Of a DNA stretch of 64,000 bases, positions 8,025 through 37,097 are shown piece after piece. The number at the start of each line of letters is the position of its first letter. Position 1 is the stretch's first letter. Location: the NCBI GenBank assembly GCA_964017825.1, contig CAXHMA010000001.1:83928-147927 (forward strand), given 5' to 3'. The translations under genes were made by a program, and so were the position numbers. The notes below the pieces were generated by a model. It made no database searches. It was not told the DNA's origin and worked only from the letters and a program-made list of their open reading frames with translations. The DNA comes from an uncultured Alphaproteobacteria bacterium (lineage in GTDB: Bacteria; Pseudomonadota; Alphaproteobacteria; RF32; CAG-239).

Positions 8025-8039
8025 ATCAGCACTCTGAAT

Positions 8040-8883: not shown

Positions 8884-8989
8884 GCAGACTCCTTTTTACG
8901 CAAAATACAGTAAATTGCAAAAAAAGCAATATTTTATATACAAAACCGATTTTAAAGATTAAATAAATTCCTGACGAAAGGAAACACTC

Positions 8990-11337: not shown

Positions 11338-11347
11338 CGGCGCATAA

Positions 11348-12037
11348 ATGAAAAAGTTTATTCTTGCCGTCATCGTCGGACTTTTCTGCCTCATTGCACC
11401 GCTTATCGCCGAAACGTCATATCCGGCGCTAACCGGCCATGTCGTTGACGAAGCCAATATCCTCACCCCGCAAACCAAAGCCGAATTGGAAGCCCTGCTT
11501 TCCGCAGACTCTGACAATCAGGTTGTCGTCGCCGTCTTAAATGACCTGCGCGGCAGAGACGGGCGCGAATACGGCGTTGATTTGGCGCGCCGGTGGCAGC
11601 TCGGACAAAAAGGCAAAGACAACGGCGCGCTGATTTTGCTGGCAATAAAAGACCGTTACGTCGGCATAGAAGTCGGCTACGGACTGGAAAGCATTTTAAC
11701 CGACAGTATAAGCGGTAGAATTTTACAATACGAAATTCTTCCGCCCATACAACAAAATCAGGATTATAACCAAGCCATGCTCAACGGCGCCAAAGCGGTC
11801 ATGACGGTTATTTCCGGCGGAAAAATCGCGACACCTGCCGAAGAAGATGATAAGATTAATGCCCTCATCACCGCGCTCTTTTTGCTCCTGATGCTTTATG
11901 CCATGTCCAAAGGCGGCGGCGGCATATTCCCCGGCGGCGGTTTCGGAGGTGGCTTCGGAGGATTTGGCGGCAGAGGCGGCGGTTTCTTCGGCGGCGGCGG
12001 AAGCTTCGGTGGCGGCGGTGCCGGACGCAGATTTTAA
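11348..12037 (+). CDS. TPM-domain (YgcG-like) membrane protein with Gly-rich C-terminal tail.
   Basis: Signal/TM, TPM domain motifs, TM, then GGGFGGGFGG tail; typical LemA-TPM pairing. Confidence 0.7.
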   Translation: MKKFILAVIVGLFCLIAPLIAETSYPALTGHVVDEANILTPQTKAELEALLSADSDNQVVVAVLNDLRGRDGREYGVDLARRWQLGQKGKDNGALILLAIKDRYVGIEVGYGLESILTDSISGRILQYEILPPIQQNQDYNQAMLNGAKAVMTVISGGKIATPAEEDDKINALITALFLLLMLYAMSKGGGGIFPGGGFGGGFGGFGGRGGGFFGGGGSFGGGGAGRRF

Positions 12038-16427: not shown

Positions 16428-16442
16428 GCGCCGTTTTTTTAG

Positions 16443-16560
16443 AGGAGAGAAATTTTGTGAGTGAGCCTGAAATGTCCGCCAAGGGAGGGAAGTGTACATA
16501 AAAGTACATGACCCGACCGAAGTGCGGCTTCCATCCACAAATTAGTTCACAATAATTTGA
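16443..16560 (+). repeat. Rep1 copy A (dispersed ~110-bp stem-loop repeat, core GTGTACATAAAAGTACATG, tail TTCCATCCACAAATTAGTTCACAA).
   Basis: Shares head module GAGAAATTTTG[C/T]GAGTGAGCCTGAAAT, core and tail with five other copies in the window. Confidence 0.75.
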
Positions 16561-17753: not shown

Positions 17754-19367
17754 TTAAAAACGTTCTATGGATCGCTGATATCCCAATTTCAGATAAATTG
17801 ACTTTTTCCCGACAAAAAAATAAGGGCGCGCGGGAAAATTACTAAGTCCGAGAATAAGATCCGGCGGTTCCTCAAAATCGACTTTGGCGGCAAAGAATAT
17901 TGCGCTTTCTTTATCCTCTTGCGTCAACTGCTCGTTGCCCGACAATACATAAATGAAAGTATCCTTGATAAACATCGCGTCACCCCAAATCGGATTTTCC
18001 GCTTCATACAAAAATAAACCGGCAGAGAAAATATGATGCAAAAATTTGGAGTAGCCGTACAACTCTCTCAGTCTCTCCCTGTCTTCGCCATACACATATT
18101 CGTCTCCGGTAAATTTTTCCCTGCCGTAAAACCCGCCGTGCACAAACAGACGGTAATGCTGCCCCGGAACAAGCTCCGACATAAGCTCCGAACGCACCCT
18201 GTCTGCCGTGCGCTCATCCAGTTTGTCGCCCGAAACCCAGACTTTTTGAGCCGTCAAATCAGCTTTCGCATAGCTGAGCGTCAAAACCAAAGCCAAGGCA
18301 AAAGCGGCATTGCCGAGCCATTTTCGTCCGCCCGCAGAAGCCGTGGCAAAAAGTATAGCGCCGACATAGGGAACAGAAAAGAAATGAATACGATAAGTAT
18401 AAAAGAAATCTTTCGGTGACATAAACGCCATCGTAAACGAAACATATAAAAGTCCGACAATACCGAGCAAACCCATGACAAAGCGCCGCCGGCAATATGT
18501 CGCCCAAAGAGCCGCTGCGGCAAGCCCGCAAAGGCACCAGACGACAACGTCCGAACAATAAGGAAACCCGTCGGTCAACACCCGCAAGGGCTCATCCCAC
18601 CGCTCCCGAAACTTCACCCACATATCTTTAACGGGAAGCATCTGGATATTATACATTCCCCTTGATAACCACATTTTATAACGCAGATAGGCAATAGCTC
18701 CGCGATAGAGTAACCCTGCCGCCGCTATCCATCCGCCGGCTTTTACATAAGCAAAAATCGCTGCCCTGTCTGCTTTTCTGCCCTGCATCACGTCTGCCGA
18801 AAATTTCCCGAACACCAAAACCAGCGCCAGTTCAAACGAAGCCGCATATCCCCCCATACTGATAAACAAACAAAGGCACCCGCCGAACGCGTATAAAATT
18901 TTACCCTCTTCCGCACCCTTAAAAATCAACATCATCCCGACAACGCATAAAAGCGGCCAGAACAAAACGGATATAACCGAATGCACATACCAAATCTGCG
19001 TTAACAAATAAGGGTTCAAAACAATCAGAAGCGAATACAAAACAACCGGAATATAATCCTTCCGCACACCGTACCAACAGGCGGAAAGCACCGCCGCGGC
19101 ACTGAAAAACAAAAATCCGACAAGCGCCGAAAATATCGGCAAAAGCTGACCTTCCGTCAAAATAACGGGCAACACGAACTGTGTAAAACGCCCTTCCCAA
19201 AGTCCTTCGGTCATCTTAACGCCGTACCGCATATATTTATAATCGTGATTACCGACATAAAAGCTGCCGAGATAGAAAAGAAACACCGTTGTCAATATGC
19301 CGAAAACCAACCCCAGGCAGTTAAGCCAAAAGCCGTATTTCTCTCTCCAAGTCTTTTTTTGCGTCAT
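17754..19367 (-). CDS. Large polytopic membrane protein (537 aa), family unknown; paralog of split gene at 19460..21180.
   Basis: ~10 predicted TM segments plus C-terminal soluble domain; two paralogous ORFs align to its N- and C-halves. Confidence 0.6.
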   Translation of the reverse strand: MTQKKTWREKYGFWLNCLGLVFGILTTVFLFYLGSFYVGNHDYKYMRYGVKMTEGLWEGRFTQFVLPVILTEGQLLPIFSALVGFLFFSAAAVLSACWYGVRKDYIPVVLYSLLIVLNPYLLTQIWYVHSVISVLFWPLLCVVGMMLIFKGAEEGKILYAFGGCLCLFISMGGYAASFELALVLVFGKFSADVMQGRKADRAAIFAYVKAGGWIAAAGLLYRGAIAYLRYKMWLSRGMYNIQMLPVKDMWVKFRERWDEPLRVLTDGFPYCSDVVVWCLCGLAAAALWATYCRRRFVMGLLGIVGLLYVSFTMAFMSPKDFFYTYRIHFFSVPYVGAILFATASAGGRKWLGNAAFALALVLTLSYAKADLTAQKVWVSGDKLDERTADRVRSELMSELVPGQHYRLFVHGGFYGREKFTGDEYVYGEDRERLRELYGYSKFLHHIFSAGLFLYEAENPIWGDAMFIKDTFIYVLSGNEQLTQEDKESAIFFAAKVDFEEPPDLILGLSNFPARPYFFVGKKSIYLKLGYQRSIERF

Positions 19368-19459
19368 TAAAAACGTGCTCCTTTTTTACGGATATTTTAA
19401 TCTCTGGAACAAATGTAAAAACAAAGGTGTAAAAAGCAGGTTAATATCCGCATAATGTT

Positions 19460-21180
19460 TTAATAAAGATAGCGGTGAAGCTTGCTTTTCTGAACCAAAC
19501 CGTCCGAAAACCGGATAATAATGTCTTTTGTTCCCACAAAATAATACTTTCCCGCCGGAAAAACCGATAAAGTCTCAATTGCATTGTAAACGGCGGAAAC
19601 ATCTGCCGGAATTTCATACAATTTCTCACTTTCGGCATTTCTTTGCGCTGCCGACAAATGCTCGTTGTTGTTAATGTATATCATCCCGCCGGCATAGTAA
19701 TTGGCATCGCCCGCCACCGGATTCATTGCTTCTGTCAAAAAAAAGCCGTGCGAGAAAAATATCGGCAGGTAGAAAGGGTAATATCCGTATTCCCTGACAT
19801 AGTCCGTATATTCGGGAATAAATTTATTTTCGGCAAATTTCGCCTGCCCGTAAAGGTTTCCGACAACCGCCATTCTGTAACGCTGCCCGCGGGTGATTTC
19901 CGGCAGTACGTCTTTTTTAACCCGTTCCATAATTTTCGTGTCCTGCTGATTACCCAAATACCAGACTTTCTGCACCGCCAAGTCCGCCTGCACAAAATAA
20001 AACAGCAGCAGCAAAACCATAACACGGGCTGAATTGCGCACGCACAAACCGCCACGCAGTTCCGCAACGGCAAAAAACAATGCCGCAACATACGGAAAAG
20101 AAAAAGAATTTGTCCGATAATAATGAAAAACTTCTTTAACCGCAAACCATGAAGAAACACTCATGGCAAACCCTGTCCCCAAAATGGCAAAAACAAACCA
20201 CAACCGCTCTTTCCCGCTTCTCATCGCGGCAAAAGCCGACAGCAGCAAACCGCCCGCAAGCAAAGGACTGAAAGACGGACAATACGGCATCGGGGTAAAA
20301 AACGCCCGCCACGGTTCCGCAGCACGGGTCAGAATGCGCTTAAACACATCCTCTGCCGACAGCAGCTGAACATTATACATATCAAACACCAGCCCCTTTT
20401 GTTTCAAAAAAATTATCAGCGCGGCCAAACACAAAGCAGCAACCAAAACGGCAGCCGAAATCTTAAAATATAACATAAACAGCCGTTTCAAAGACATGTC
20501 CCTGTTTAAGACATCGAGCAAAAACCGTCCCGCCAAAACAGTCAGCACCAGCTGCAAAGACGGTGCATCTTAAAAACTATATCTTTTGCCCACCGCAAGC
20601 CGGGCCTTCCAACAATGAAAAAGGCAGTAAATAACATTAAGACTACATAGACCAGCGCAAAATAGGCGAAACAAACTTATGTCACGTTTACACACTCGAC
20701 AATCTCCGACGTATTGACCGGCTTATTTTTCTGAAACCCGTCATATAATAAAACTACCCCGGAAACCGCGAGCAAATGCCAACACCCGATAGACAGTATC
20801 GTATATGTATAATAGATTTGTGAAACAATATGCGGATTTAAAACAATCAGCAACGCAAATAACAGACCGCCTTTTTTATGTTCACCCCATCCGTACCATT
20901 TTGCCGTCAAAACCGCGGCGGCGGCGTAAAATGCAAAAGCCGAAAGCATATTGATAACCGGCAGAATTTGATTGCCGCTTACAAGCCACGGAAACAAAAA
21001 CTGCGTCAGACGCCCTTCCCAGACGCCCGAATTCAAAGACATACCGTAACGCAGATACAAATAATCATGATTGCCTGAAAAGAACGTAACAATGCAAAAA
21101 GAAAAAACCGCAGCTATGGCGCCCCATACCTGAAAAAAGGTTTTTAACCAAAAATAATGCTGCTTCAAAAAGTGTATCAT
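19460..21180 (-). pseudogene. Disrupted paralog of 17754..19367: N-terminal fragment ORF 20677..21180 and C-terminal fragment ORF 19460..20557 in different frames.
   Basis: 167-aa ORF matches residues ~1-150 and 365-aa ORF matches ~200-537 of the full-length paralog; frames differ, ~120-bp gap. Confidence 0.45.
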
Positions 21181-22295: not shown

Positions 22296-22505
22296 ATCGC
22301 CCCGTTACAGGAGCGATTTTGCCCACCCTTAAAGGAGAGAAATTTTGCGAGTGAGACCAATCAGACTCACTCATTAAAAATTAAAGGAGGGAAATTTTGC
22401 GAAATAATCGCAGATGTCCTGCCCTAAAGCGCAGCGTACATAGAGGTACGAGAGCATTTAGGGACAGGCCTCCATCTGCGAATTAGTTCACAACAATTTA
22501 CCCCT
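22296..22505 (+). repeat. Rep1 copy B (with duplicated head modules) abutting adhE stop codon.
   Basis: GGAGAGAAATTTTGCGAGTGAG, GGAGGGAAATTTTGCGAAATAATCGCAGATGTCCTG, core GCGTACATAGAGGTAC, tail CCTCCATCTGCGAATTAGTTCACAA. Confidence 0.75.
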
Positions 22506-25254: not shown

Positions 25255-25329
25255 TTATATTTTAAAATCAAGGGCATGGAAAATTGCATCCCGGCCAATC
25301 AACAAAACGATAAGGCATAATTTTTTCAT
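25255..25329 (-). pseudogene. Remnant 5' cassette (24 aa: MKKLCLIVLLIGRD...) of the secreted-paralog family, ATGA-overlapping the stop of 25326..26087.
   Basis: Nucleotide string AAGGCATAATTTTTTCAT identical to the starts of three upstream paralogs. Confidence 0.4.
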
Positions 25330-26087
25330 GGTTCCCTGTTTTCTCCGTATTTGGCCGCCGCTTCGTTTAAAAGGGTGTCTGCGGCATGTTCCAGCAACAC
25401 ATTGGTTTTGAATTTGACTGTATATTCTCTAAGCTGATATTCCGGATTCAGATATGAATAATACTTTTTTGTTTCATCTGCCATTCTGACGAAAGCTTCT
25501 GTTACCTCTGCTGCTTTATCAGGGTAAAATTGCGTTGCGGCCGTATCAATAATTTCATAAACACACCGCTCGTAACCATCGGCATATGCTCTTTCCGCCA
25601 CATGAATTGCCTTGATGTTGCCGTCATCATCTTTCAGTTCCGAACGATAGGGGACAAAATCGCCGCACTGTTCCAATTTTTGCCGCAGTGCATTAACTGC
25701 TTCTATTCCATATGGATGTTCGGCATCTAAATATTCTTTGACTTCGGTTCGCGAAAAATCAGCACATTGAACAATGTAACCAAGATTTCGGTATATTTCA
25801 GCCTTGTCAGTCGGTATGTAAATATAAGCGATATCCGTCTCCAAGCCGTTAATATATATGAGCCTTTCCTGTATTTTATCATCGGCAATCGCCTTGACCG
25901 AAGCCGGCGCTATTTTACGCGCTTTGTTATCGCCCTGACACGTCGGACAATAATGTATCACCTCTTTGGCATTCTGTAACAGTTTGACGGCGTTTTCAGC
26001 AATGTCTGCCGTATTGTAAACGCAGATATCGGCATGCGCCGTTATCGCAGCCAAACACAGCAAAACAATAAGGCATAATTTTTTCAT
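25326..26087 (-). CDS. Secreted Cys-containing hypothetical protein (253 aa) sharing only its signal peptide with neighbours.
   Basis: Signal peptide MKKLCLIVLLCLAAITAHA; ATG start. Confidence 0.6.
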   Translation of the reverse strand: MKKLCLIVLLCLAAITAHADICVYNTADIAENAVKLLQNAKEVIHYCPTCQGDNKARKIAPASVKAIADDKIQERLIYINGLETDIAYIYIPTDKAEIYRNLGYIVQCADFSRTEVKEYLDAEHPYGIEAVNALRQKLEQCGDFVPYRSELKDDDGNIKAIHVAERAYADGYERCVYEIIDTAATQFYPDKAAEVTEAFVRMADETKKYYSYLNPEYQLREYTVKFKTNVLLEHAADTLLNEAAAKYGENREP

Positions 26088-26090
26088 GAT

Positions 26091-27014
26091 TTACTCCTCA
26101 TTTAAATCACATTTGAGGCGGTTTTGTTTTTCAAAACAATCTTTATGTACGAGATATAAATCTTTTTTATTGAAATAGTCTATATAAAGAGCATAAAAAT
26201 CATTCGGGTTAAAAGTTATTTGATGAATCAATTTGTTACGGCGGTCTAAATTAAATTCAGTATAAGGCTTTCCGTCTTTGCCGATAATCACAGAACCGTC
26301 AGCTTTAAATTCAAACGAAGCCCTGCCGCATGTAAGCTTAGGATTATCTTTCAGCCGATAATAATTCTCCGGCAATGTGCTTCCTTCCTCATATGAATGC
26401 AGTTCAATAAATCCTTTCCCTAAATCCTCATAGCAGTTTAGTTCAACGACGTTAAACTCGGGAAAGACAACCTTATCTTCATCAGCCAATATCAGTTCGT
26501 AACTGGTTTCCTCCGGTATATCCGGCATTTTATAATCATAACGGCAGTAGCTTCGGTCAGCCCCTTCATAAGCGCATCCGCGCACAAAAATTTTGCCGTC
26601 TTTTATGCCGACGGAATCATATATGCCGTCAGCTTCTCGACCGAACGGGAATAAATTGCCTAAGTATTTTTTCCCTGCATACAGCTGTACGGCCAATTTA
26701 TAGCTATATGGATATGACTGCATAAACACTGGTGTAAATTTCATTTTATATTCAACACCGTCAATAACGCAGCTTTCTTCGCGCGGTATTGGTTTTGTTT
26801 GAGTTGTTGTGACGTTATATTCGTATAATCCGTGTTTTTGTGCTCTCTGTGCCCAATCCTTATCTTCCGGTTCGGCAAAAAAATCTTTCATATCCGTACG
26901 GAATTCTTTTACATTTGGCAGACAGCTTGTTTTGTATGTATATTCATAATAACTTGTCGCATGTGCCGTTATCGCAACCAGACACAGCAATATTAAAAGG
27001 CATAATTTTTTCAT
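26091..27014 (-). CDS. Secreted Cys-rich hypothetical protein, tandem paralog A (307 aa).
   Basis: ~70% aa identity to 27014..27949; signal peptide MKKLCLLILLCLVAITAHA; start ATG overlaps upstream stop (TGATG). Confidence 0.65.
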   Translation of the reverse strand: MKKLCLLILLCLVAITAHATSYYEYTYKTSCLPNVKEFRTDMKDFFAEPEDKDWAQRAQKHGLYEYNVTTTQTKPIPREESCVIDGVEYKMKFTPVFMQSYPYSYKLAVQLYAGKKYLGNLFPFGREADGIYDSVGIKDGKIFVRGCAYEGADRSYCRYDYKMPDIPEETSYELILADEDKVVFPEFNVVELNCYEDLGKGFIELHSYEEGSTLPENYYRLKDNPKLTCGRASFEFKADGSVIIGKDGKPYTEFNLDRRNKLIHQITFNPNDFYALYIDYFNKKDLYLVHKDCFEKQNRLKCDLNEE

Positions 27015-27949
27015 CAATTTATCTCCTTAAACATATTGCAGCCGGAGCATTCTTCCTTTTCAGAGCAAAATCTGCTGTTCGAATACAGTTCCTTTTTATC
27101 AAAATATTTTATATAAAAACCCGCAAGCAAACTCGCATCAAAAGCTATTTGATAAATCTGTTTGTTACAGAGTGCCGGATTAAAGTCAGCATACGTTTTT
27201 TCATCTTTGCTGACGATGACCGAACCGTCAGCTTTAAATTTTATGGAAGCCCTGCCGCATGTAAGCTTAGGATTATCTTTCAATCGATAATAATTTTCCG
27301 GCAACTCGCTTTCTTCCTTATAAGAACGCAGCTCAACAAATCCTTTTTCCAAGTCTTCATAGCAGTTCAATTCAACGATGTTAAATTCCGGAAAGACAAC
27401 CTTGTTTTTATCAGCCAATATCAATTCATAACTGGTTTCTTCAGGCATATCCAACTCTTTATAATCATAAAGGCAATAACTTATATTGGTTGCCTCGTAA
27501 ATACAACCTCGCACAAAAATTTTGCCGTCTTTTATGCCGACGGAATCGTAGCCGTCATCATAATCCGCACCAAACGGAAAAAGGATGCCCCTATATTTTT
27601 TTCCGGCGTAAAGCTGCACAGCCGTCTCATGACGGCCATAATATTCCCGAACAAGTATAGGAATAAATTTCATTCTATATTCAACACCGTCTATGGTGCA
27701 GCTTTCTTCCCTCGGCAGCGGCTTTTCTTCATATGTATCCACATTGAGCCTGTATAATCCGTGTTTTTCAGCTTTTTGTAACCAATCTGCATCATCCCGA
27801 ACATCAAAAAAAACTTTTCTGTCTGCACGGAATTCTTTTACATTCGGCAAACAGCTTGTTTTATATGTATATTCATAATAACTTGTCGCATGTGCCTTTT
27901 TGGCAAACGCAGCCAAACACAGCAATATTAAAAGGCATAATTTTTTCAT
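27014..27949 (-). CDS. Secreted Cys-rich hypothetical protein, tandem paralog B (311 aa).
   Basis: Paralog of 26091..27014; same signal-peptide cassette. Confidence 0.65.
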   Translation of the reverse strand: MKKLCLLILLCLAAFAKKAHATSYYEYTYKTSCLPNVKEFRADRKVFFDVRDDADWLQKAEKHGLYRLNVDTYEEKPLPREESCTIDGVEYRMKFIPILVREYYGRHETAVQLYAGKKYRGILFPFGADYDDGYDSVGIKDGKIFVRGCIYEATNISYCLYDYKELDMPEETSYELILADKNKVVFPEFNIVELNCYEDLEKGFVELRSYKEESELPENYYRLKDNPKLTCGRASIKFKADGSVIVSKDEKTYADFNPALCNKQIYQIAFDASLLAGFYIKYFDKKELYSNSRFCSEKEECSGCNMFKEIN

Positions 27950-27952
27950 GAT

Positions 27953-28687
27953 TTACTCTTGTTCTAAATTAAAAACTTTTGCCGTTTCGTTCATGTACCA
28001 TGCAACCACTTTTTTAATTTCAGTATAACGGAATGCGGCAATATAATCCTCAACGACGGTGCCGTTGTCATAATTTTCCGTCGGGGTATATATATCCCGC
28101 AGCAGAGTTTCATATGCAGTCAAATAATTATCAAAATTTTTTTTATATTTATCTGCGTTATCGAGATGGCAGTTTTTAAACAATGAAGACAGTGTTTGCA
28201 AATAACATTCTTCCGCTTCTGTAAGATTACTGTTTTGTACATTGCCGTATAGTTCTTCGCATTGCTGATATCGTTTCTGCGTCTGCATAAATTTATCACG
28301 CATGGAAATATATATTTTATCAGAACCTATTTCTTTCAAAAGACGATTATCATCCGTTTTGCAACCGATTATCAGTCCTAAATTTTGATATGTTCCGGAT
28401 ATTTCAGAATAAACAAAGAAATCCGTTGCCGCATAACTGTTGTCTTTTATGCTGAAACGTCCGAACTCCAAACTGTTTTCATCTGTTGTGAAATCAATAT
28501 CGGCAAAAGAAATCTCCTGCGGTTTAGTGTTTTCAAACAGCAGAATTTCTTTTGCGGATGATAAAACATTTTCTGCTTTTTCCATTTCCTCAACGCTGAG
28601 GGCATCGCATCCGCAATAATCAGCCCGAGCCATGTATATAGGAAACAGCATTAAAACAGAGATAAAGATTAAAATTTTATTTTTCAT
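27953..28687 (-). CDS. Secreted Cys-containing hypothetical protein (244 aa).
   Basis: Signal peptide MKNKILIFISVLMLFPIYMARA; operonic with neighbours. Confidence 0.55.
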   Translation of the reverse strand: MKNKILIFISVLMLFPIYMARADYCGCDALSVEEMEKAENVLSSAKEILLFENTKPQEISFADIDFTTDENSLEFGRFSIKDNSYAATDFFVYSEISGTYQNLGLIIGCKTDDNRLLKEIGSDKIYISMRDKFMQTQKRYQQCEELYGNVQNSNLTEAEECYLQTLSSLFKNCHLDNADKYKKNFDNYLTAYETLLRDIYTPTENYDNGTVVEDYIAAFRYTEIKKVVAWYMNETAKVFNLEQE

Positions 28688-28776
28688 TTTCGCGCCCCGG
28701 ATAAATATTCCTCTTTAAGTTTTCCGAACATTTGTTCAAATTTCTCAGCACCATAATATTGCTGTTTTACCCTGCT

Positions 28777-29406
28777 TTATAAAGCAAAATCTGTGCAGTT
28801 TTTAAAATCTTCCATTGTTCCCAATGCGGCGTTTTCATAACCGTTATATGTGTAACAGTGGATTTTGTCTTTTGTTTCACGGGTACAATTTAAAGGCAAA
28901 ACTCCTTGCCGTTTAGCGCCATTCTTGTCAAAATATTCCGCAATGCAGCGGCAATCATGACACTTTTGCAAGTCTATCCGGCTGTATATTTCTGAACCTT
29001 TACATGATTTGGATATATAAACATTGTTACTTGCCGAGAAAATAAGTTCGTCATTACCGCCAATGTAACATGACGCTTTATCAAAATTATCTTTATTATT
29101 TTCCTCGCAAAAGAAAGAAACGGTTTCCTGCGCGTGGTTGGCAGTATCCTTAACAGTGCCGGAACAGCCGTGTGAGCCGCAATCCGCAAAACGAAAAGGC
29201 TCTGCCTTGTCAATCCACAGAGGGACTTCAATTTGATATGTGTCTTTTGACCCCCGATATATATATTCAACACTATCCTCATCTTCGGCAAGTAACTCAC
29301 CTTTGCTGACGGCAAATTCACCGCACGGCCAATCTTGCGGAAGAGCATTTACTGTATAACAAAACAATATACTACATACAAAAATCATATAACCTTTTTT
29401 CAACAT
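28777..29406 (-). CDS. Secreted Cys-rich small protein (209 aa), candidate cognate immunity-like partner of upstream SLT protein.
   Basis: Signal peptide; 14 Cys; 5' end overlaps 3' end of SLT-domain gene by 35 nt. Confidence 0.55.
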   Translation of the reverse strand: MLKKGYMIFVCSILFCYTVNALPQDWPCGEFAVSKGELLAEDEDSVEYIYRGSKDTYQIEVPLWIDKAEPFRFADCGSHGCSGTVKDTANHAQETVSFFCEENNKDNFDKASCYIGGNDELIFSASNNVYISKSCKGSEIYSRIDLQKCHDCRCIAEYFDKNGAKRQGVLPLNCTRETKDKIHCYTYNGYENAALGTMEDFKNCTDFAL

Positions 29407-30523
29407 TGTATAAATGTCCTCTTAAATTTTTCTCTATTTTATCATAGGGTAAACGGTATACTCCATTTTTATCTTTTTCAAGTGATTTAAAATAGGTACG
29501 GACAAAACCAAGCCCTTCGCGATGTCCGGCAGCCAGTAATCCTGACAGAGTAATATCAAAATCAACCTCTTGTTTGTTCAGAACAGCCTTTACATGCATT
29601 GTCGTTTGTGGCAAAAGGTTCATTCGTTTCAAGCGAATATAATTTAAATTCATCATATCTTTTATCGCTTTTTCTTGGACTTCGTGTGCATTATAAAAAT
29701 CTTGTGCGCTGTTTATACCGTCTTTTCCTAACCAATTTCCCTGCTTGTCAACATATCCCAAATCAATAAGAATCCCCTTACGCATTTGATATTTTCCCAG
29801 TGCCCCTATTCCTCCTCCTTCCGAATTAAAGGCATTATAATTGTTACTTGATTCTTTTTGAGCTAATAAGTTATAAAAATCATTACTCAAATAGTTGTCA
29901 ACGAATCTTAAAGATTCTTTTTGCTCTCCTTTTATCTCCATTGAAGCCAGCTTTTGTTTGGTTTCCGCGATGTGTTTTTGTATGGCTTTGTCCGTTTCAA
30001 AAAGACGGCGTTGTTCTTTTTCCTGCGCTGCGCGTTCTTTCCATTCCTTTTCCAAAGATATGCGGCCTTCTTCACTCATTCGGTGCCACACTTCGGGGGT
30101 GAAGAGCGGCGGGAAGGGAGAGGATGTCAAGCCTTTTTCTTCTTCCGATATTTTTATAAGTTCCGCGTCATCATTCTGATTTGAAAACGGATCAGGCTGT
30201 CCGGAAACAGCACGCAGGTCATTTGTTTGCAGCTGTTGTTTTCGTTCTGCCATATCAGCTCGAAACGCCTCAGTTGTGTTGCGTTGCATGAGAGATTCCT
30301 GCCTTTCAAGCTCACGGGCTGTCGCACGTTCTTTCAATACCTCACCGGCGTAACAGCGTACTGAGCAGTAATCCTGATATTCCTCGTCGGGAATTTGGTA
30401 TTCAATGTCCCAAGGGTTTTCGCCGAAACGGTCGTAATATTCATTGAGTTTTTTCTTGGCGATGGTTTTCGGATTTGGGGTCCCGAATAACGTTTTTTCC
30501 AATTCATCAGCAAAGCTGTGCAT
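29372..30523 (-). CDS. Signal-peptide-less protein with charged coiled-coil-like N-region and C-terminal lytic transglycosylase (SLT family 1-like) domain.
   Basis: GAGGAG RBS before ATG 30523 (the track ORF starts at an upstream TTG); C-terminal QKESSNNYNAFNSEGGGIGALGKYQM ... IKDMMNLNYIRL ... LLAAGHREG follows ES / GLMQ / AYL / AYNAG motif order. Confidence 0.55.
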   Translation of the reverse strand: MHSFADELEKTLFGTPNPKTIAKKKLNEYYDRFGENPWDIEYQIPDEEYQDYCSVRCYAGEVLKERATARELERQESLMQRNTTEAFRADMAERKQQLQTNDLRAVSGQPDPFSNQNDDAELIKISEEEKGLTSSPFPPLFTPEVWHRMSEEGRISLEKEWKERAAQEKEQRRLFETDKAIQKHIAETKQKLASMEIKGEQKESLRFVDNYLSNDFYNLLAQKESSNNYNAFNSEGGGIGALGKYQMRKGILIDLGYVDKQGNWLGKDGINSAQDFYNAHEVQEKAIKDMMNLNYIRLKRMNLLPQTTMHVKAVLNKQEVDFDITLSGLLAAGHREGLGFVRTYFKSLEKDKNGVYRLPYDKIEKNLRGHLYNVEKRLYDFCM

Positions 30524-30669
30524 ATCGTTCTCCTCTATAAAAAAAGACTTCAAACCGCACCGTCCGAAGTCCTGAATTAAAAATCGTATATTATAATAAA
30601 TATACTTTTGGGAGAATGTCAATACTTTCAGAGACAGAGATGTAAATATTTTTTATGGAAAAAATATGG

Positions 30670-30893
30670 CAGAAATTTTGCGAAGCAGCCGCGGGAGCCT
30701 TACCCGCGTTACGCCCCGTTACAGATGGGAAATTTTGCGAAATAACCGCGGGAACCCTGCCCCATTACAGGCGGAAAATTTTGGTAGTGAGCCTGAAATA
30801 TCCGCCAAAGGGCAGGAGTGTACATAAAGGTACATGACTGCCCTGCAGAGCGGCTTCCATTTCAGAACTCAATACCAAAATTTACCCCTGTAA
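30670..30893 (+). repeat. Rep1 copy C (three head modules + core) abutting pyk stop codon.
   Basis: GAAATTTTGCGAAGCAGCCGCGGG, GGGAAATTTTGCGAAATAACCGCGGG, GTGAGCCTGAAATATCCGCC, core GTGTACATAAAGGTACATG, tail GGCTTCCATTTC...AATTTACCCCTGTAA. Confidence 0.75.
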
Positions 30894-32315
30894 TTAAGCT
30901 TTGACGATGTGAAGAACGTTGGTAATCCCCGCCCTTCCGAACGGATAGCCTGCCGTAACGACAATATGCTCACCCGGTTGCGCAAGGCCGGAGACACGCG
31001 CAAACCCGCGCGACACCGTTTCAATGTTATCAAAACTTTCAAAAACTTTCTTGTCAATAAAGGTCTTCACACCCCAAACAAGGTTCAGACGCCGCGCGAT
31101 TTCCTCGCTCGGGTTGATAGACATAACCGGCAAAACGGGACGTTCCTGCGCCATGAGCAATGTTGTTGCGCCGGAAACCGAAAACGTCGCAATGCAGGCA
31201 ACTTTGTTCATCGTGCGCACAACCGTACTTGCCGCATGTGTGATGGCGTGCGATTCATCGCTGTAACATGCCGGCTCGCAGAAACGGTTAACATTTTCAA
31301 AATAACGCGGATCAGCTTCCACATTTTCAATCACGCCGCGCATGGTCCTGACCGTTTCAACAGGATAATTGCCTGCAGCCGTTTCCGCCGAAAGCATAAC
31401 GACATCGCAGCCGTCATAAACCGCCGTCGCCACGTCCGAAACCTCGGCTCTTGTCGGTATCGGCGCCGAAATCATCGATTCGAGCATCTGCGTCGCCACA
31501 ATCACCGGCTTGCCGTACAGACGGCATTTCGCTTCAATGCGTTTTTGCAAAACCGGCACCGTCACAATCGGACATTCCACGCCCAAATCGCCGCGCGCCA
31601 CCATAACCATATCCGAAGCTTTAACAATCGCGTCCAGCTCGTCCAAAACCTGCGGCTTTTCAAGCTTGGAAATAATCCACGCTTTTTTACCGATAATCTT
31701 ACGCGCTTCCCTGATGTCCGAAGCCCGCTGCACAAACGACAGGCAGACGCAGTCCACACCGAGCTTTAAGGCAAAATCCAAATCGCTCAAATCTTTCGGC
31801 GTCAGCGGTGAAATATTCAGCGAAGAGTTCGGCAGATTCACGCCCTTATGTCCGGAAATAATACCGCCGACCTCGACTTCGGTCTCCGCAGAATCTTTAT
31901 TGCATTTTAAAACCTTTAAGATAATGTTGCCGTCATTGACCAACAGCGTGTCGCCGGCTTTTAAAGCTTCAAAAATCTCTTTATGAGGCAGGGTAACACG
32001 AGTCTCATCACCGAGCTCATCCTTCATATCCAACGTAAACTTCTGCCCTTTTTGCAGCAGGACTTTTCCCTCTTTAAACGTACCGATTCTCAGTTTCGGC
32101 CCCTGCAAATCCGCCACAATTGTCGTATGCGCGTTTTTCTTTTTTGCGATTCTGCGCACCGTATCATATGTTTCTTTGTGTTCTTCCTGCGTACCGTGGC
32201 TGAAATTCAGACGAAACCCGTCCACGCCTGCTTCAATAAGGGCTTCAATTTTTTCTTCGCTGTTTGAAGCGGGTCCCAATGTTGCTAAAATCTTTGTACG
32301 CGTACTGATCGGCAT
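30894..32315 (-). CDS. pyk: Pyruvate kinase.
   Basis: 473 aa; PK barrel and C-domain motifs (MVARGDLGVE, TQMLESM). Confidence 0.95.
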   Translation of the reverse strand: MPISTRTKILATLGPASNSEEKIEALIEAGVDGFRLNFSHGTQEEHKETYDTVRRIAKKKNAHTTIVADLQGPKLRIGTFKEGKVLLQKGQKFTLDMKDELGDETRVTLPHKEIFEALKAGDTLLVNDGNIILKVLKCNKDSAETEVEVGGIISGHKGVNLPNSSLNISPLTPKDLSDLDFALKLGVDCVCLSFVQRASDIREARKIIGKKAWIISKLEKPQVLDELDAIVKASDMVMVARGDLGVECPIVTVPVLQKRIEAKCRLYGKPVIVATQMLESMISAPIPTRAEVSDVATAVYDGCDVVMLSAETAAGNYPVETVRTMRGVIENVEADPRYFENVNRFCEPACYSDESHAITHAASTVVRTMNKVACIATFSVSGATTLLMAQERPVLPVMSINPSEEIARRLNLVWGVKTFIDKKVFESFDNIETVSRGFARVSGLAQPGEHIVVTAGYPFGRAGITNVLHIVKA

Positions 32316-32487
32316 AATATTTCTCCATTAGTTACATTCCGTATTTCGCTTTCTTACATATATAACATAAATGTTTAATAACTTATTATTCTTTATGTTC
32401 TCCACAATTATTTCTTGTCAAAAAAAAATATCTTTGCTATGGTGTCAGCCGATATGATTTTGTAATACTAAAAATGGGAGAGACGAC

Positions 32488-32736
32488 ATGTCAGAAAATG
32501 AAGTTGGCGGCATTGACAGCACCAGATTAAATTCGCTTATTGAACGTATTGAACGCCTGGAAGAAGAAAAAAAGGGAATTTCTTCCGATATCCGCGATAT
32601 CTATGCCGAAGCCAAAGGCGTCGGTTTTGACGTTAAAATCATGAAAACAATCATCAAATTAAGAAAGATGAATCAGGCTGACCGCGATGAGCAGGAATTT
32701 TTGCTTGAAACATACCGCAAAGCGCTGAATGTTTAA
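32488..32736 (+). CDS. gapR: GapR-like nucleoid-associated protein (DUF2312/UPF0335), alphaproteobacteria-specific family.
   Basis: LNSLIERIERLEEEKKGISSDIRDIYAEAKGVGFDVKIMKTIIKLRK matches the family consensus. Confidence 0.75.
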   Translation: MSENEVGGIDSTRLNSLIERIERLEEEKKGISSDIRDIYAEAKGVGFDVKIMKTIIKLRKMNQADRDEQEFLLETYRKALNV

Positions 32737-32749
32737 AGTAGACTTTAAG

Positions 32750-32790
32750 TCAAAGAAGCTCTGTCGAGCAAAACAGAGCTTCTTTTTTAT
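32750..32790 (+). terminator. Intrinsic terminator after gapR.
   Basis: GAAGCTCTGTCGAGCAAAACAGAGCTTC + TTTTTT. Confidence 0.65.
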
Positions 32791-32834
32791 CTCTGTTACA
32801 TCAGCCTTTCTGCGTTCATAATTTTATATAAAAT

Positions 32835-32940
32835 GCGGAATTTTGCTTTAATATCGCGGGAGCCCTGCCGGGGAGGAGAGTACATTGAAGTACATGGCCC
32901 GACCGACGACAGGCCCCTCCCGCGAATTAATTTACAAAAT
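32835..32940 (+). repeat. Rep1 copy D, ends 8 nt before stop of permease gene.
   Basis: GGAATTTTGCTTTAATATCGCGGGAGCC, core GAGTACATTGAAGTACATG, tail CCCTCCCGCGAATTAATTTACAAAAT. Confidence 0.7.
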
Positions 32941-32948
32941 GACACATT

Positions 32949-34421
32949 TTATACCGCAACCAACCCTCTGGCCATGGCATAAATCGCAAACAGCGCGGCA
33001 ACCACCAATACACCGGCCGCAAAGCGTTCGCCTGCGGTAAATGCCGGTTCATGCGGCGCGTTTTGATGCCGCGCGTGAATAAAGACCGGAATACCGATGG
33101 CCATAAATATCAACGCCATCAACAAATAGTTAAGACCTGCGGCATATATCAGCCATAAGGCATACAACGAACCTAATACGGCCGAAAGCAACGCAGCGCT
33201 GCGGCGGATGTAGAAATCAGCCGGATATTCATGGTCTTCGCATAATTTCCACAAATACATCGCACTCGCGAAATACGCCGGCAGCACCATAACGCTCGTG
33301 ATGCTGAGCATCGTGTTCCACGCATTGCCCGAAAAATAAACCATAAGCATAAACAGCTGCATCAAAAAGCTTGTCACATAAAGCGAAACTGACGGTGCCT
33401 GTGCGGCATTTTCTTTGGTAAATTCTTTCGGAAACGTGCCGTTTTCAGCCGCTGCCTGCGGAATCTGCGCCGTAACCATGGTCCACGCCAGCCAGCTCGT
33501 CAAAACCGAAACCAGCAAACCGATATTCATGATATATGACCCCCATTTGCCGATAACCGCTTCCAGCACGGCCGCCGTGGAAGGATTAGGAAGTTTGGCC
33601 AATTGTTCCTGACTCATCAGACCATATGGCAAAACAGAAAGCAATACATACACCAGCAAACAACCCGAAAAACCGAGAAGCGTAGCCGTACCGACAGCCC
33701 GCGGATTTTTGGCATGTTTTGACATCACCACAGCGCCTTCAATACCGATAAATGCCCACAACGTCACAAGCATTGTGCCTTCAATCTGCTTTGTCAGGCT
33801 GCCGAGATTGGTTTCCCGCTCACCCCAAAAGTCAAATGAAAATTTATCCGAATTGAAGAACACCATTGTCACCACAATAAAGAACAACAGCGGCACAATT
33901 TTTGCTACCGTACCGATAAGGTTTACAATCGTTGCCTGTTTAATCCCTTTCAATACCAGCGCGTTAAATCCCCAGATAAGGATAGAACCGCCGATAATGG
34001 AATAAAGATTATTCCCTCCGACAAAATAAGGCGGAAAGAAATAGTTCAGCGCATCCATGGTAATAACCGCATAGCCGACATTGCCGCAGATTTGGCACAG
34101 CCAATATGACCAGCCGATTGTAAAGCCGACATATCGTCCGAACCCTGCCCGGCTGTACATATAAATACCGGCAGTCAAATCCGGCTTAACCACAGACAAA
34201 ATGCGGAAAGTATTTGCCAAAAAATAAACGCCGATACCGGTAATCAGCCACGCCAATAAGACTGCTCCGACCGAAGCGCCGGCAGCCATATTTTGCGGCA
34301 GACTGTATATGCCGCCGCCGATCATGGAACTGACCACAACGCCGGCCAAAGCCAAAACGCCGAGCTTTCCTTTATCCGGCTGTGTTGCCGGCGTTGTTTT
34401 AATGTTTTCTTGTTTTGCCAT
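32949..34421 (-). CDS. APC-superfamily amino acid/polyamine antiporter (candidate arginine:agmatine exchanger by context).
   Basis: 490 aa, 12-13 TM, APC-type glycine-rich TM1; adjacent to arginine decarboxylase. Confidence 0.7.
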   Translation of the reverse strand: MAKQENIKTTPATQPDKGKLGVLALAGVVVSSMIGGGIYSLPQNMAAGASVGAVLLAWLITGIGVYFLANTFRILSVVKPDLTAGIYMYSRAGFGRYVGFTIGWSYWLCQICGNVGYAVITMDALNYFFPPYFVGGNNLYSIIGGSILIWGFNALVLKGIKQATIVNLIGTVAKIVPLLFFIVVTMVFFNSDKFSFDFWGERETNLGSLTKQIEGTMLVTLWAFIGIEGAVVMSKHAKNPRAVGTATLLGFSGCLLVYVLLSVLPYGLMSQEQLAKLPNPSTAAVLEAVIGKWGSYIMNIGLLVSVLTSWLAWTMVTAQIPQAAAENGTFPKEFTKENAAQAPSVSLYVTSFLMQLFMLMVYFSGNAWNTMLSITSVMVLPAYFASAMYLWKLCEDHEYPADFYIRRSAALLSAVLGSLYALWLIYAAGLNYLLMALIFMAIGIPVFIHARHQNAPHEPAFTAGERFAAGVLVVAALFAIYAMARGLVAV

Positions 34422-34473
34422 ATTTTTATATCCTCTAACTAAAATTAAACCACTGACTTAGTTAAAAGACGGC

Positions 34474-35055
34474 CTAAACTTTTGCAGCCGGAGCATGTTC
34501 AAAGTTCAAAAAGCCGAGGCAGGTCAAACTGTAACCGAATTGCTGTTCAATATTCAGATAGTTATGGAACAGCTGAAATTCACTGTGTTTTTCCACACCG
34601 CGGATTTCCAATTCGTGGTTAAGAGATTTGTTAAGCCACATTTCGGCATGCCCTTTGGCAATTTCATCATCAATCTGAGTATCAAAAAACTCAACATACT
34701 CGGCAGCCCATCCGCCGATAAGTTCGCCGTTTTTATCTTTACCCCAGCAGATTCCGAGACCTGTCGCAATCGCTTTATGTTCGTCGCGGCTGGCACCGTG
34801 TCCGGCCATAATAACTTCCAATACCGCACCGTGTTTGAACTGGTTGACAACTTTGTCAACAGGAACGATGTTGCCGAATATCTCTTTCGGCAGAACGGAT
34901 GTGTAAGGAACAACGTTAAAGTTTTCAATTTTAGCTTGCAATAATGCAGAGTCATAACAAAAAGTCTCAAAAGGCTGCGGCGGAATACCTTCGTTGGCCT
35001 GGCCGACACCGCCGGTAATAAATGCTAATGTAGGAAATCTTACACCTTCTGTCAT
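34474..35055 (-). CDS. pdaD: Pyruvoyl-dependent arginine decarboxylase (PdaD/AaxB family).
   Basis: 193 aa; conserved block [25 protein letters not shown] resembling the self-cleavage region of archaeal/chlamydial PdaD. Confidence 0.55.
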
Positions 35056-35131
35056 ATTCTTCTCCTTATAAAAAATTAATTAAGCAGGAGAATACATAAC
35101 CTTTAATTTAATTTTTTAAACGCCCCAAAAA

Positions 35132-35968
35132 TCAAACTAGCCTTTTCGCTATATCAAGATACTGCACCGGCGATAAATTTTCCGCCCGCAATGTCGGCTC
35201 AATCCGTAAAGCTTCCAGATGCTCCGCAATCTGCGGAATGCCTTTCAGACTCTGCCTGATCATCTTGCGCCGCTGCCCGAAAGCCAGCCCGGTCAACATC
35301 TGCACTTTCTCCAAAATATCTTTATGCAAAGCCTCTTTTTTCGGCACAAACAATAAAACCGAAGACCAGATTTTCGGCGCCGGAACAAAACACGTCGGCG
35401 GCAGATCAAACAGACGGACAACTTCGCATTGCAGCTGCGAAATAACCGAAAGGCGCCCGTAATCCTTACAACCCGTATCCGCCAAAATCCGGTCGGCGAC
35501 TTCTTTCTGAAACATCAGCGTCAGACTTTTAAAACGCGAAATTTGTTCCAGCCAGCCGGTCAGCAAAACGACGGAAATATTATACGGCAGATTGCTGACA
35601 ATATGAAAAGCGCCGTCCACAGCGGCTTTGCCCGCCCAGTCAAATTTCAGTGCATCGCCGTTCACGATTTCCAACTGCGGATAACCTTCTTTAATTTCTT
35701 TCAAAATCTCAATGCAGCGCTCATCCATTTCTATGACGGTCATCTTCTCGGGCGATTGCCTGAGTACCGCCTGCGTCAGCCCGCCGGGCCCCGGGCCGAC
35801 TTCCGCGACACATTCACCGGCATAAGACGGAAGTTTCTGCTCGGTAAGAGACAAACGGATAATCTTGTCGGTGATGTTTCCGTCCAGCAAAAAATTCTGC
35901 CCTAATGACTTTTTCGCCAACAGCCCGTATTTATCAACAAACTCTTTTGTGCTTAAAATGTCCGCCAT
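35132..35968 (-). CDS. rsmA: 16S rRNA (adenine1518/1519-N6)-dimethyltransferase.
   Basis: KSLGQNFLLD, VGPGPGGLT SAM motif, NLPYNIS. Confidence 0.9.
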   Translation of the reverse strand: MADILSTKEFVDKYGLLAKKSLGQNFLLDGNITDKIIRLSLTEQKLPSYAGECVAEVGPGPGGLTQAVLRQSPEKMTVIEMDERCIEILKEIKEGYPQLEIVNGDALKFDWAGKAAVDGAFHIVSNLPYNISVVLLTGWLEQISRFKSLTLMFQKEVADRILADTGCKDYGRLSVISQLQCEVVRLFDLPPTCFVPAPKIWSSVLLFVPKKEALHKDILEKVQMLTGLAFGQRRKMIRQSLKGIPQIAEHLEALRIEPTLRAENLSPVQYLDIAKRLV

Positions 35969-35976
35969 ACCCGACC

Positions 35977-37083
35977 TTAAAACTTCTTTTCCACCACCGC
36001 GCGGTTGCGCAAATCGCGGATATATTTATTCGCGAGCTCGCCTGTTTTGCGCTCTTCAATAAACTTACGCACTTCGTCTTCCGTCGGGAGATTTTGCTTA
36101 TCTTTCGCCGGATTGTAAATTTTATCCATACGAAAGATATAATAGTCGGCTCTGTATGGTACGGCTTTGGAAATTTCGCCCTCTTTTAATGCCCGTACGG
36201 CCTTATCCAACGGTGCTGCCAGCTGCCCCGGAGCCACCCAGCCGAGCTTGCCGCCCGAAGGTGCGCTTGCCGACTGCGAAAACTGCGCGGCATAAAGCTC
36301 AAAGCGCGGGTCTTTTTGCAAAATGTCCACGAGCTCGCCGATGTGCTCGCCGTCTTTGCGTTTAATCACGATTTCAGAGACCATATATTTCGGTGTATTC
36401 ATGTCTTTTTTAATACGCTCCAACTCTTCCGCGATTTCCCTTTCCGAAATATAAATCCCTTGTCCCTGTTTGCGGTTGACCAGCTTGTTCCATAATAAAT
36501 TTGCTTTAATCTGGTTCATAAAAACATCTTTGCTGACATGATATTCTTTCAACACTGCGGCAAACTTTCCGGCCGGAACGCTGTTGGACTTTTCAAAATT
36601 GCGGTACGCCTGTTTGATTTCCTTATCCGTCACGCCCACGCCCTGTTTTTCGGCTTCCTGAAACTTAATCTTCTCGTCAACGGTATTTTGCAAAACTTTT
36701 TCGGCAACCATTTTTTTATTCTTATCATTAATATGAATTCCGGTTGTCAGGGCAAACAAATTGGCTCTCTCCTGCAAATCTTTGTTTGAGAGCATTTCGC
36801 CGTTGACCGTCGCCACGATTTTCAAACCGTTTCCGAACAAATTATAAGGTCGGAAAACAACCGCCTCCCGCTTTAATTTTGCCTCTCTTTCCATCCGCTC
36901 TCTGGCTTCCTCTTCTGCCCTTTCGCGCATCATTTGTTCATCATCCGCGTTGTTGCGCCGAAACATGATTGATTTGGAAGAAGAGCTCCTGAGTTCCCTG
37001 TCCAAGGTCGACATATCCAAATCTGCCGCCGCCGCATCAAACGCAAACAACATGCTAAGCAAAAACAAGGCTGATTTCATCAT
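35977..37083 (-). CDS. surA: Periplasmic chaperone/parvulin PPIase SurA-like.
   Basis: Signal peptide, charged linker, chaperone domain, parvulin domain (GGKLGWVAPGQL); conserved lptD-surA-rsmA order. Confidence 0.7.
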   Translation of the reverse strand: MMKSALFLLSMLFAFDAAAADLDMSTLDRELRSSSSKSIMFRRNNADDEQMMRERAEEEARERMEREAKLKREAVVFRPYNLFGNGLKIVATVNGEMLSNKDLQERANLFALTTGIHINDKNKKMVAEKVLQNTVDEKIKFQEAEKQGVGVTDKEIKQAYRNFEKSNSVPAGKFAAVLKEYHVSKDVFMNQIKANLLWNKLVNRKQGQGIYISEREIAEELERIKKDMNTPKYMVSEIVIKRKDGEHIGELVDILQKDPRFELYAAQFSQSASAPSGGKLGWVAPGQLAAPLDKAVRALKEGEISKAVPYRADYYIFRMDKIYNPAKDKQNLPTEDEVRKFIEERKTGELANKYIRDLRNRAVVEKKF

Positions 37084-37097
37084 TGTAATACTCCTGT

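Follow-up and report, generated by a model that had tools for sequence, protein, structure and literature searches.

How do genes for unrelated secreted proteins come to begin with the same letters, and what keeps those letters the same from one species to the next? The question is raised by a 64,000-nucleotide stretch of DNA from an uncultured gut alphaproteobacterium (positions 83,928 to 147,927 of contig CAXHMA010000001.1, assembly GCA_964017825.1; hereafter the window), in which a single string of 18 nucleotides (nt), ATGAAAAAATTATGCCTT, encodes the first six residues, MKKLCL, of four neighbouring open reading frames (ORFs). Three of these are tandem genes for proteins of 311, 307 and 253 amino acids (aa), designated B1, B2 and A2, and the fourth is a stub of 24 codons (Table 1). 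The explanation favoured here, which as a whole we consider reasonably probable, is that the four 18-mers would form the invariant core of a portable module, made up of gene start and signal peptide, that heads the non-cognate ('orphan') cassettes of one polymorphic effector operon, with recombination at the modules reshaping the array.

One gene start shared by four reading frames

When the window was scanned for the 18-mer at up to three mismatches and compared with 100 dinucleotide shuffles, four exact matches were found, all on the minus strand, and no fifth match; the shuffles gave a mean of 0.37, and none of the 100 reached four. A first-pass annotation, made from the letters of the window, had stated that the same string starts genes at 26087, 27014 and 27949 and a stub at 25329, and this is borne out. 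A repeat search further delimited a 62-nt block around the junctions (-20 to +42), with 87% identity between B1 and A2 and 74% between A2 and B2, and a 41-nt block common to all four copies. Two of the four junctions overlap, namely TGATG, in which the B2 ATG and the B1 TGA stop have one base in common, and ATGA, by which the stub supplies the stop codon of A2; the earlier description of the junctions as ATGA/TGATG overlaps holds for these two and fails for the others, which read TAA-atc-ATG.

The proteins behind the shared start are of two kinds. B1 and B2 are 66-67% identical in protein and 74% in DNA, where about 70% had first been estimated, and A2 has no detectable similarity to either outside the signal peptide. 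The first-pass statement that A2 shares the cassette alone has nevertheless to be widened, as A2 also shares the whole signal-peptide region of about 57 nt and, with B1, the 62-nt block. By inspection, these starts are Sec signal peptides of the form MKK / LCLLILLCLVAIT / AHA|T (AHA|D in A2), with a basic n-region, a hydrophobic h-region and an AxA-type site, and the mature starts coincide with those of homologs bearing other signal peptides. The lipobox pattern [LVI][ASTVI][GAS]C is absent from them, Cys 5 coming after K-K-L and Cys 11 after L-L or L-F. Over the rest of the signal peptide (codons 7-24), B1 and B2 are 88% identical in nucleotides and A2 is 75-83% identical to the two B genes, against 40-58% (about 50%) between species; greater similarity within a genome than between species is, on these alignments, the pattern of concerted evolution.

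The stub shows what may be left when the body of a cassette is gone. Its 18-mer is followed by a signal-peptide region that is decayed yet full-length (MKKLCLIVLLIGRDAIFHA) and aligns with the A2 signal peptide as far as CATGCC, past which it continues as CTTGATTTTAAAATATAAAC..., part of the adhE upstream region that is also conserved in the stub-free locus L120 (L-numbers label the related sequence stretches that were compared with the window). Moreover, over its first 29 nt the stub matches, at 97% identity, the start of the cassette that comes last before adhE in L003. The earlier view of a decayed 24-aa remnant carrying the cassette is confirmed and can be made more precise: as read from its sequence, the stub is a signal-peptide-only remnant at the array end, fused to the adhE upstream region.

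Grafted signal peptides and exchanged cassettes

Three protein families of these loci, named B, PQDWPC and A, each include some members that carry the module and others whose signal peptides are unrelated to it, and this mixture means that the module has been transplanted. The only homologs of A2 (38-47% identical) start with MMKKIVLL..., MLLFNITI... or MLGMFVLC... and have the mature start D[IV]CIYN in common; since the signal peptides differ and the mature start is the same, A2 is a B-type signal peptide joined at the cleavage site to an A-family body, and has thus acquired its signal peptide from the B type.

A comparison of related lineages shows where arrays have changed. The loci L005, L089 and L099 are 91-98% identical in the nucleotides of their flanks and differ in cassette content: L005 has the cassette 298 and then B313; L089 has 298, 367 and then a 12-codon stub; and L099 has 298, 367 and then 216b, while the head gene and first cassette are absent. 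L005 and L089 agree at 98% identity as far as +31 of the module at the third gene, after which different genes follow, and L099 carries yet another cassette at that position. Further, the variants 'gctttgatg' and 'gcttttttg', which lie just past the 18-mer, have exchanged array positions between L089 and L099. L005 is a Logan contig assembled at k=31, and its gene content differs from that of L089 whatever the assembly path. In L082, two tandem paralogs are followed by a signal-peptide-only stub of 24 codons. Overall, what has been described for tandem immunity paralogs is also found here, namely shared blocks (62 and 41 nt), concerted evolution, and breakpoints and swapped variants inside the block.

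The proposal of the first-pass annotation that recombination or gene conversion acts at a fixed 5' module is therefore supported on four counts: the mixed families, the signal peptide of A2, concerted evolution and breakpoints within the module. It had also suggested comparing copy number in relatives, naming arrays alike across divergent relatives as the finding that would speak against it, and the three loci above, with their differing cassettes and breakpoints in the module, are the opposite. In the process envisaged, the modules act as short direct repeats between which homologous recombination and gene conversion take place. These would have (a) grafted the same signal peptide onto unrelated mature domains, (b) homogenised the modules within a genome, (c) deleted, duplicated, replaced and reordered cassettes between related lineages and (d) left a terminal signal-peptide-only module before adhE.

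Site-specific recombination offers another route to the same layout: a gene-capture system comparable to integrons or to the rAID-1 arrays of Bacteroidales would use the 18-mer as its core site, and the terminal stub would be an empty attachment site. The repeat is indeed short, sharply bounded and invariant at each cassette boundary; signal-peptide-only modules stand at the array end in two independent lineages (window and L082); and the GC content of the array is low, as in rAID-1 (10.1101/471110). On the other hand, no integrase or recombinase domain was found in the 30 window ORFs scanned or in the precomputed Pfam matches of L002, L003, L120 and L126, and the 18-mer is neither palindromic nor endowed with an attC-like fold. 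The exchanges that were mapped fall 3' of the 18-mer, at +19 to +35, one deletion having used a TGTTTT microhomology, and the repeat sits within coding sequence, the intergenic sequences being unconserved across 22 instances. Taken together, these points make a dedicated recombination site quite improbable. A dif/Xer-like reading of GCATAAT...ATTATGC was also tried and rejected, since its two arms stand 24 nt apart instead of 6 and the sequence flanking them lacks conservation.

Eighteen nucleotides held constant between species

How far does the shared start extend beyond the window? A scan of 185,579 species, at one genome per species, returned 108 stretches with the 18-mer. About 100 of these are single copies in unrelated phyla, as many as chance would give for a start of the MKKL type. 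The remaining 8, among them every multi-copy match, come from metagenome-assembled genomes (MAGs) of uncultured gut Alphaproteobacteria sampled from mouse, buffalo, water deer and other sources. No exact copy was found outside the array locus in the array-bearing MAGs, and a scan of viral contigs gave three singletons, again at chance level. In at least six other gut Alphaproteobacteria species the identical 18 bases, synonymous positions included, stand at gene starts; a locus has 2 or 3 such genes, from families that BLAST does not link, and altogether the module heads seven such families. An assembly artefact was considered and rejected, given that the module recurs in independent NCBI, ENA and Logan assemblies and that 18 nt is shorter than assembler k-mer sizes. 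As a separate observation, a Sel1-repeat protein of 349-351 aa has an 18-mer start in two further gut Alphaproteobacteria MAGs (L022:2306-3361, minus strand; L110:3511-4560), at an unrelated locus with no head gene; the match may have arisen by chance or reflect another use of the module.

The conservation has sharp limits. Among 22 distinct module starts from the window and seven species-level sources, counted at up to two mismatches to the 18-mer, 21 have identical letters from +1 to +18, and the one that departs from them is ATGAAGAGATTATGCCTT. In the 45 nt upstream of the ATG of these 22 instances, no consensus column reaches 80%, and from +19 on conservation is patchy, with scattered T/G positions only. 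The B orthologs of other species are only 52-62% identical to the window B proteins, and in a nucleotide profile of these orthologs (leaving out the near-identical pair L003/L004) identity between species is complete (100%) over codons 1-6, drops to 40-58% over codons 7-24 and stands at 59-68% in the mature part. Nor do the codons look like a habit of these genes: given MKKLCL and the codon usage of the window, the joint probability of the five codons is 0.007 per lineage, and nearby signal-peptide codons of the same genes are mostly TTG for Leu (42/72) and TGT for Cys (13/18), not TTA, CTT and TGC. The 18-mer is also unchanged in L082, a locus of 52% GC. Gene conversion within a genome cannot give identity between species, and these 18 nt are therefore under constraint at the nucleotide level; the recombination idea of the first-pass annotation does not cover this invariance, minority codons included.

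Ordinary tandem duplication is the simplest alternative, with identical starts explained by recent ancestry, by selection on the peptide MKKLCL and by a preference for A/U-rich codons at gene starts. B1 and B2 are true tandem paralogs, and MKKL is a common signal-peptide start, to which the roughly 100 chance occurrences in unrelated genomes testify. The seven unlinked families, the homologs with other signal peptides in three of them, the minority status of TTA, TGC and CTT in the very same signal peptides and the persistence of the 18-mer across species whose orthologs are saturated at synonymous sites, however, leave this account with very little to commend it.

A more substantial alternative is that the 18-mer is mainly an element of control at the RNA level, the target of an antisense segment, a small RNA or an RNA-binding protein that governs translation of the orphan cassettes, with recombination as a by-product. 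Its sharp edges at +1 and +18 and the retention of minority codons would suit such a role. Moreover, in three lineages an anti-motif upstream of the first cassette pairs with the 18-mer in a stem of 12-17 bp (z -3.6 to -4.5). The hairpin (Table 1) is made by an inverted copy of the motif (AAGGCATAATTT; in L082, GGCATAGTT) placed before the first module-bearing cassette after the head gene, and it holds the Shine-Dalgarno sequence and AUG in a loop of 18-26 nt, with a U-rich tract after it. Its stem reaches beyond the 18-mer, the upstream arm varies, within the limits of a comparison of three lineages, in step with codons 7-8, and in L082 the stem is kept with a G-U pair. These hairpins indicate that the 18-mer sequence can act as an RNA pairing partner.

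The window itself, however, offers little for such a partner. Apart from a probable chance site inside adhE, it has no anti-motif at one mismatch or fewer on the transcribed strand; duplexes with the 18-mer are at shuffle level, save for those with the antisense strand of the copies themselves; and the four copies fold locally no better than shuffles do. Rfam gave no match at the gathering score and a single miRNA model at chance level (E 0.63), and the distinct hairpin sequences number three, too few for covariation statistics. As the principal explanation of the 18-mer, RNA-level control is on balance rather unlikely. Two smaller readings of the same letters were rejected: an out-of-frame alternative AUG at +12, the resulting peptide of which is not conserved, and an antisense promoter at CATAAT, for which a -35 element is absent.

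A putative modular, lysozyme-like effector at the head of the proposed operon

What the orphan cassettes may be for is suggested by the gene that leads them. In the head gene product, a conserved N-terminal domain (N-domain, about 75 aa) is followed by a helical linker and then by a C-domain that bears a motif of lysozyme/transglycosylase type, E-S...GxxGKYQ. The N-domain can be aligned across eight heads, is common to the heads at all array-bearing loci that include one, and belongs to no known family, with only about nine relatives in 1.84 billion representative proteins; a metagenome scan with it returned two short contigs alone, neither with the 18-mer. The C-domains, in turn, are exchangeable. 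Similarity between the window and L003 heads is limited to residues 1-82, and the protein P0009 combines an L052-type N-terminus (84% identical) with a window-type C-domain. A conserved N-terminal region with alternative, unrelated, toxin-like C-terminal domains is the arrangement seen in polymorphic toxins, and the head may accordingly be pictured as a polymorphic effector with a clade-specific N-domain and interchangeable lysozyme-like C-domains.

Several comparisons point to peptidoglycan as the target. The E-S ... G-x-x-G-K-Y-Q motif is invariant in the window-type C-domains, and the predicted model of the window head (pLDDT 83, above 90 in the C-domain) has as its best Foldseek matches the lytic transglycosylase MltD, destabilase and i-type lysozymes, at an E of only about 0.6. 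One L120 head has a C-domain that is a clear GH108 lysozyme (E 2e-22), and other head C-domains are sub-threshold Phage_lysozyme-like (E 7e-4, 1e-3) or Pesticin-like (E 4e-3). PDB sequence searches with the head and its profile as queries gave chance matches only, and the six locus proteins had no match above threshold in Pfam and NCBIfam.

If the head targets peptidoglycan, immunity to it has to be periplasmic, and by inspection the downstream proteins all have Sec-type signal peptides. The PQDWPC gene overlaps the 3' end of window-type heads (those with the E-S/GKYQ motif) in the window, L120 and L126, and that copy never has the 18-mer; the 209-aa PQDWPC protein of the window is for this reason read as the cognate immunity protein and is likely the partner of the head. 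The module-bearing genes are read as orphan cassettes because extra PQDWPC copies further down the arrays do have the 18-mer. In the proposed scheme, Sec would export the downstream proteins to the periplasm, where the 209-aa protein is the likely cognate partner of the head and the remaining proteins would be orphans that have accumulated. The downstream genes most likely encode immunity proteins or lysozyme inhibitors, and the operon looks like a polymorphic peptidoglycan-hydrolase toxin followed by periplasmic immunity cassettes, judging from domain similarity and gene order. The cassette-like diversification of secreted proteins proposed in the first-pass annotation is accordingly to be recast, since the genes resemble immunity-type cassettes behind a lysozyme-like effector, not diversifying surface antigens.

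L120 also holds a more elaborate version of the locus (6155-9579), with two tandem head genes that have the same N-domain and are 87.5% identical over 656 nt. The GH108-type head is followed by a 153-aa secreted protein and the window-type head by an overlapping PQDWPC protein. Further downstream, an orphan PQDWPC gene (11148-11528) has 88% DNA identity to the cognate copy, yet an 18-mer start.

Weighing the module

Several observations weigh against the portable module as proposed. The shared 18-32 nt are short for RecA-dependent exchange. The L089 stub consists of the first 32 nt of B313 and its last 65 nt, joined via TGTTTT, and so arose from a microhomology deletion and not from module exchange. 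Arrays are alike within species, in 24/24 contigs of one species and 6/6 of another. Recombination alone accounts neither for the sharp end of conservation at +18 nor for its hold across species. Finally, no secretion system was found among the ORFs scanned in the 64-kb window. The constancy of arrays across samples of a species implies that exchange is rare, an evolutionary process rather than rapid switching.

The same constancy, with arrays identical across those independent contigs, bears on a further idea, that of antigenic or phase variation of surface proteins, with alternative bodies placed behind one fixed 5' expression module. A shared 5' module with variable bodies is superficially like Mycoplasma vsa/vsp and the upstream homology box (UHB)/erp loci of Borrelia. 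Here, however, the cassettes are all intact and point the same way within one operon, each has a Shine-Dalgarno sequence, an ATG and a signal peptide of its own, and no lipobox, invertase or inverted site was found; phase variation is hardly to be entertained.

With respect to the invariance itself, we favour a combined role for the portable module, in which the 18 nt would serve both as a standardised start for translation initiation and export and as a handle for recombination. A bolder extension can be put forward tentatively, and with more doubt than confidence: the 18-nt start may be a dedicated cis-element of a cassette system that works without a recombinase, in which immunity genes, whether incoming or duplicated, are slotted into an effector operon by module exchange, the module also gives ready-made translation and export, and an anti-start hairpin gates expression in some lineages. 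It would then be a counterpart, within coding sequence and for periplasmic immunity proteins, of the attC sites of integrons, and such a recombinase-less system would, if real, be previously undescribed.

Layout and surroundings of the proposed operon

The array of six co-oriented genes and the stub lies on the minus strand behind a strong promoter-like site, in the order head gene, 209-aa gene, A1, B1, B2, A2 and stub, with tight gene junctions and adhE next (Table 1), and may be expressed as one operon, within which no convincing internal terminator was found. The head start is taken as the ATG at 30523, in agreement with the database protein P0007 (383 aa) and with the head orthologs; the TTG listed as a start codon by the mechanical ORF list is the -35 hexamer of the promoter-like site. 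The 209-aa gene overlaps the 3' end of the head gene by 35 nt. The N-terminal part of A1 is weakly similar to A2 (26% over 123 aligned positions), and its C-terminal part is similar to L003_314 and L006_146. The B family, with six 90%-identity clusters in total among 5.8 billion proteins, has an all-beta fold in the predicted model and no solved relative.

Table 1. Positions of the genes, junction modules and hairpins discussed in the text (window coordinates unless a locus label is given)
Feature	Coordinates	Strand	Remarks
Promoter-like site	30593..30622	-	TTGACA-18-TATTAT (11/12), upstream of head gene
Head gene, 383 aa	29372..30523	-	no signal peptide; putative peptidoglycan-hydrolase effector
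209-aa gene	28777..29406	-	secreted Cys-rich protein, PQDWPC family; own signal peptide without 18-mer; candidate cognate immunity protein
A1, 244 aa	27953..28687	-	own signal peptide MKNKIL...
B1, 311 aa	27014..27949	-	B family; 18-mer start
B2, 307 aa	26091..27014	-	18-mer start; paralog of B1
A2, 253 aa	25326..26087	-	18-mer start; B-type signal peptide and A-family mature domain, joint AHA|DICVYN at cleavage site
Stub, 24 codons	25255..25329	-	18-mer, ~39 nt of decayed signal-peptide sequence, conserved adhE upstream region
B1 junction module, 62 nt (-20 to +42)	27908..27969	-	18-mer at 27932-27949; repeat family D3
B2 junction module, 62 nt	26973..27034	-	18-mer at 26997-27014
A2 junction module, 62 nt	26046..26107	-	18-mer at 26070-26087
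Stub junction module, 41 nt	25300..25340	-	18-mer at 25312-25329; repeat family D4
Hairpin, L003	L003:9269-9320		
Hairpin, L004	L004:5099-5150		approximate
Hairpin, L089	L089:4624-4675		same in L005
Hairpin, L082	L082:3060-3110	-	

GC content is 36-40% in the array (the low-GC stretch being window 25300-29500) against 46-51% in the flanks, which is consistent with accessory or horizontally exchanged DNA. Within the ORFs scanned, the rest of the window is housekeeping in character (PBP1, PolA, FabF, LptD/F/G, SurA, RsmA, pyruvate kinase, FtsH and others). The array is 100% identical in a contig of the NCBI MAG GCA_965648045.1. The NCBI MAG contig that is otherwise identical to the window (L001/L002, position 1 at window ~30025) ends within the head gene, and the two assemblies differ in length at 20568-20710 (141 nt versus 40 nt).

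The right neighbour of the array is always adhE (window, L003 and L120), and the left is pyruvate kinase in the window and L120 and grpE in L003. Comparison of window 30894-40509 with L003 and L120 shows that the LptFG-LptD-SurA-...-pyk block has moved, so that the array adjoins a rearrangement breakpoint. A palindromic intergenic repeat of about 130 nt, resembling repetitive extragenic palindromes or miniature inverted-repeat transposable elements (REP/MITE-like), lies at 30764-30894, with partial copies at 16439-16534, 22381-22424, 41859-41920 and 62635-62655; such copies flank the block from head gene to adhE on both sides, and related copies occur between genes in L003. Elsewhere in the window (17754-21180), three neighbouring ORFs (537, 365 and 167 aa) have the appearance of paralogs for GtrII-glucosyltransferase-type membrane proteins, the two shorter ones resembling fragments of the longest; where the mechanical ORF list has the 365- and 167-aa ORFs, the MAG annotation has a single 539-aa gene.

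Relation to known systems and significance

Among arrays of orphan immunity genes, the closest counterparts of this locus are the rAID-1 arrays of Bacteroidales, in which a tyrosine recombinase accompanies integron-like repeats between the genes (10.1101/471110; PMC12247911). These arrays and the present one alike occur in gut bacteria and consist of short, diverse genes of immunity type in a single orientation, with low GC, a repeat at each cassette boundary, a structure suggesting gene acquisition and orphan copies that have diverged from cognate immunity genes. The present locus, in contrast, is alphaproteobacterial and shows no tyrosine recombinase among the ORFs scanned; its repeat is the first 18 coding nt rather than an intergenic motif, the array is fused with its own effector gene in one operon, and every cassette has a Sec signal peptide.

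The immunity paralogs esaG and tipC of type VII secretion systems (T7SS) stand in tandem, and their conserved sequence blocks are the sites of the homologous recombination by which they evolve (Garrett et al. 2022, PMC9484751). There and, as proposed, here, non-identical immunity genes lie beside a polymorphic toxin, and short blocks (at the 5' end in tipC) mediate loss, expansion and chimeras; the esaG/tipC blocks, however, fall within one protein family, whereas here one far shorter 5' block spans unrelated families and is invariant between species. Polymorphic toxin systems in general join a conserved N-terminal module to interchangeable C-terminal toxin domains, with the immunity gene directly downstream (Zhang et al. 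2012, PMC3482391). The locus has this architecture in common with them, with a candidate immunity gene, an N-domain of no known family and a putative activity. Overall, it works like the rAID-1 and T7SS paralog arrays and is a member of neither.

Other parallels are more distant. Pesticin-type lysozyme bacteriocins (pesticin/Pim) pair a muramidase-type toxin with a periplasmic immunity protein. Near-identical leaders or short direct repeats accompany variable cassettes in the Borrelia erp/ospE-F-elp 'upstream homology box' and the vls 17-bp repeats, and in conotoxin superfamilies signal sequences are conserved at synonymous sites ahead of hypervariable mature proteins. Those, however, are lipoprotein or antigen loci or eukaryotic venom genes, with longer conserved regions including promoters, while here only +1 to +18 is invariant.

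Orphan immunity arrays shape the coexistence of strains in gut communities, and, to our knowledge, the acquisition and expression of genes in such arrays are known only for the recombinase-associated systems of Bacteroidales and the single-family paralog strings of Firmicutes. An uncultured alphaproteobacterial clade appears to build its arrays via an 18-nt coding module that is common to unrelated families and invariant across species. In addition, the N-domain of the putative effector is new, and so are several candidate folds for lysozyme inhibitors at this locus. Should the module prove to be a working handle for capture, export or control, it would provide a sequence tag for immunity cassettes in metagenomes and a compact, testable case of selection on synonymous sites.

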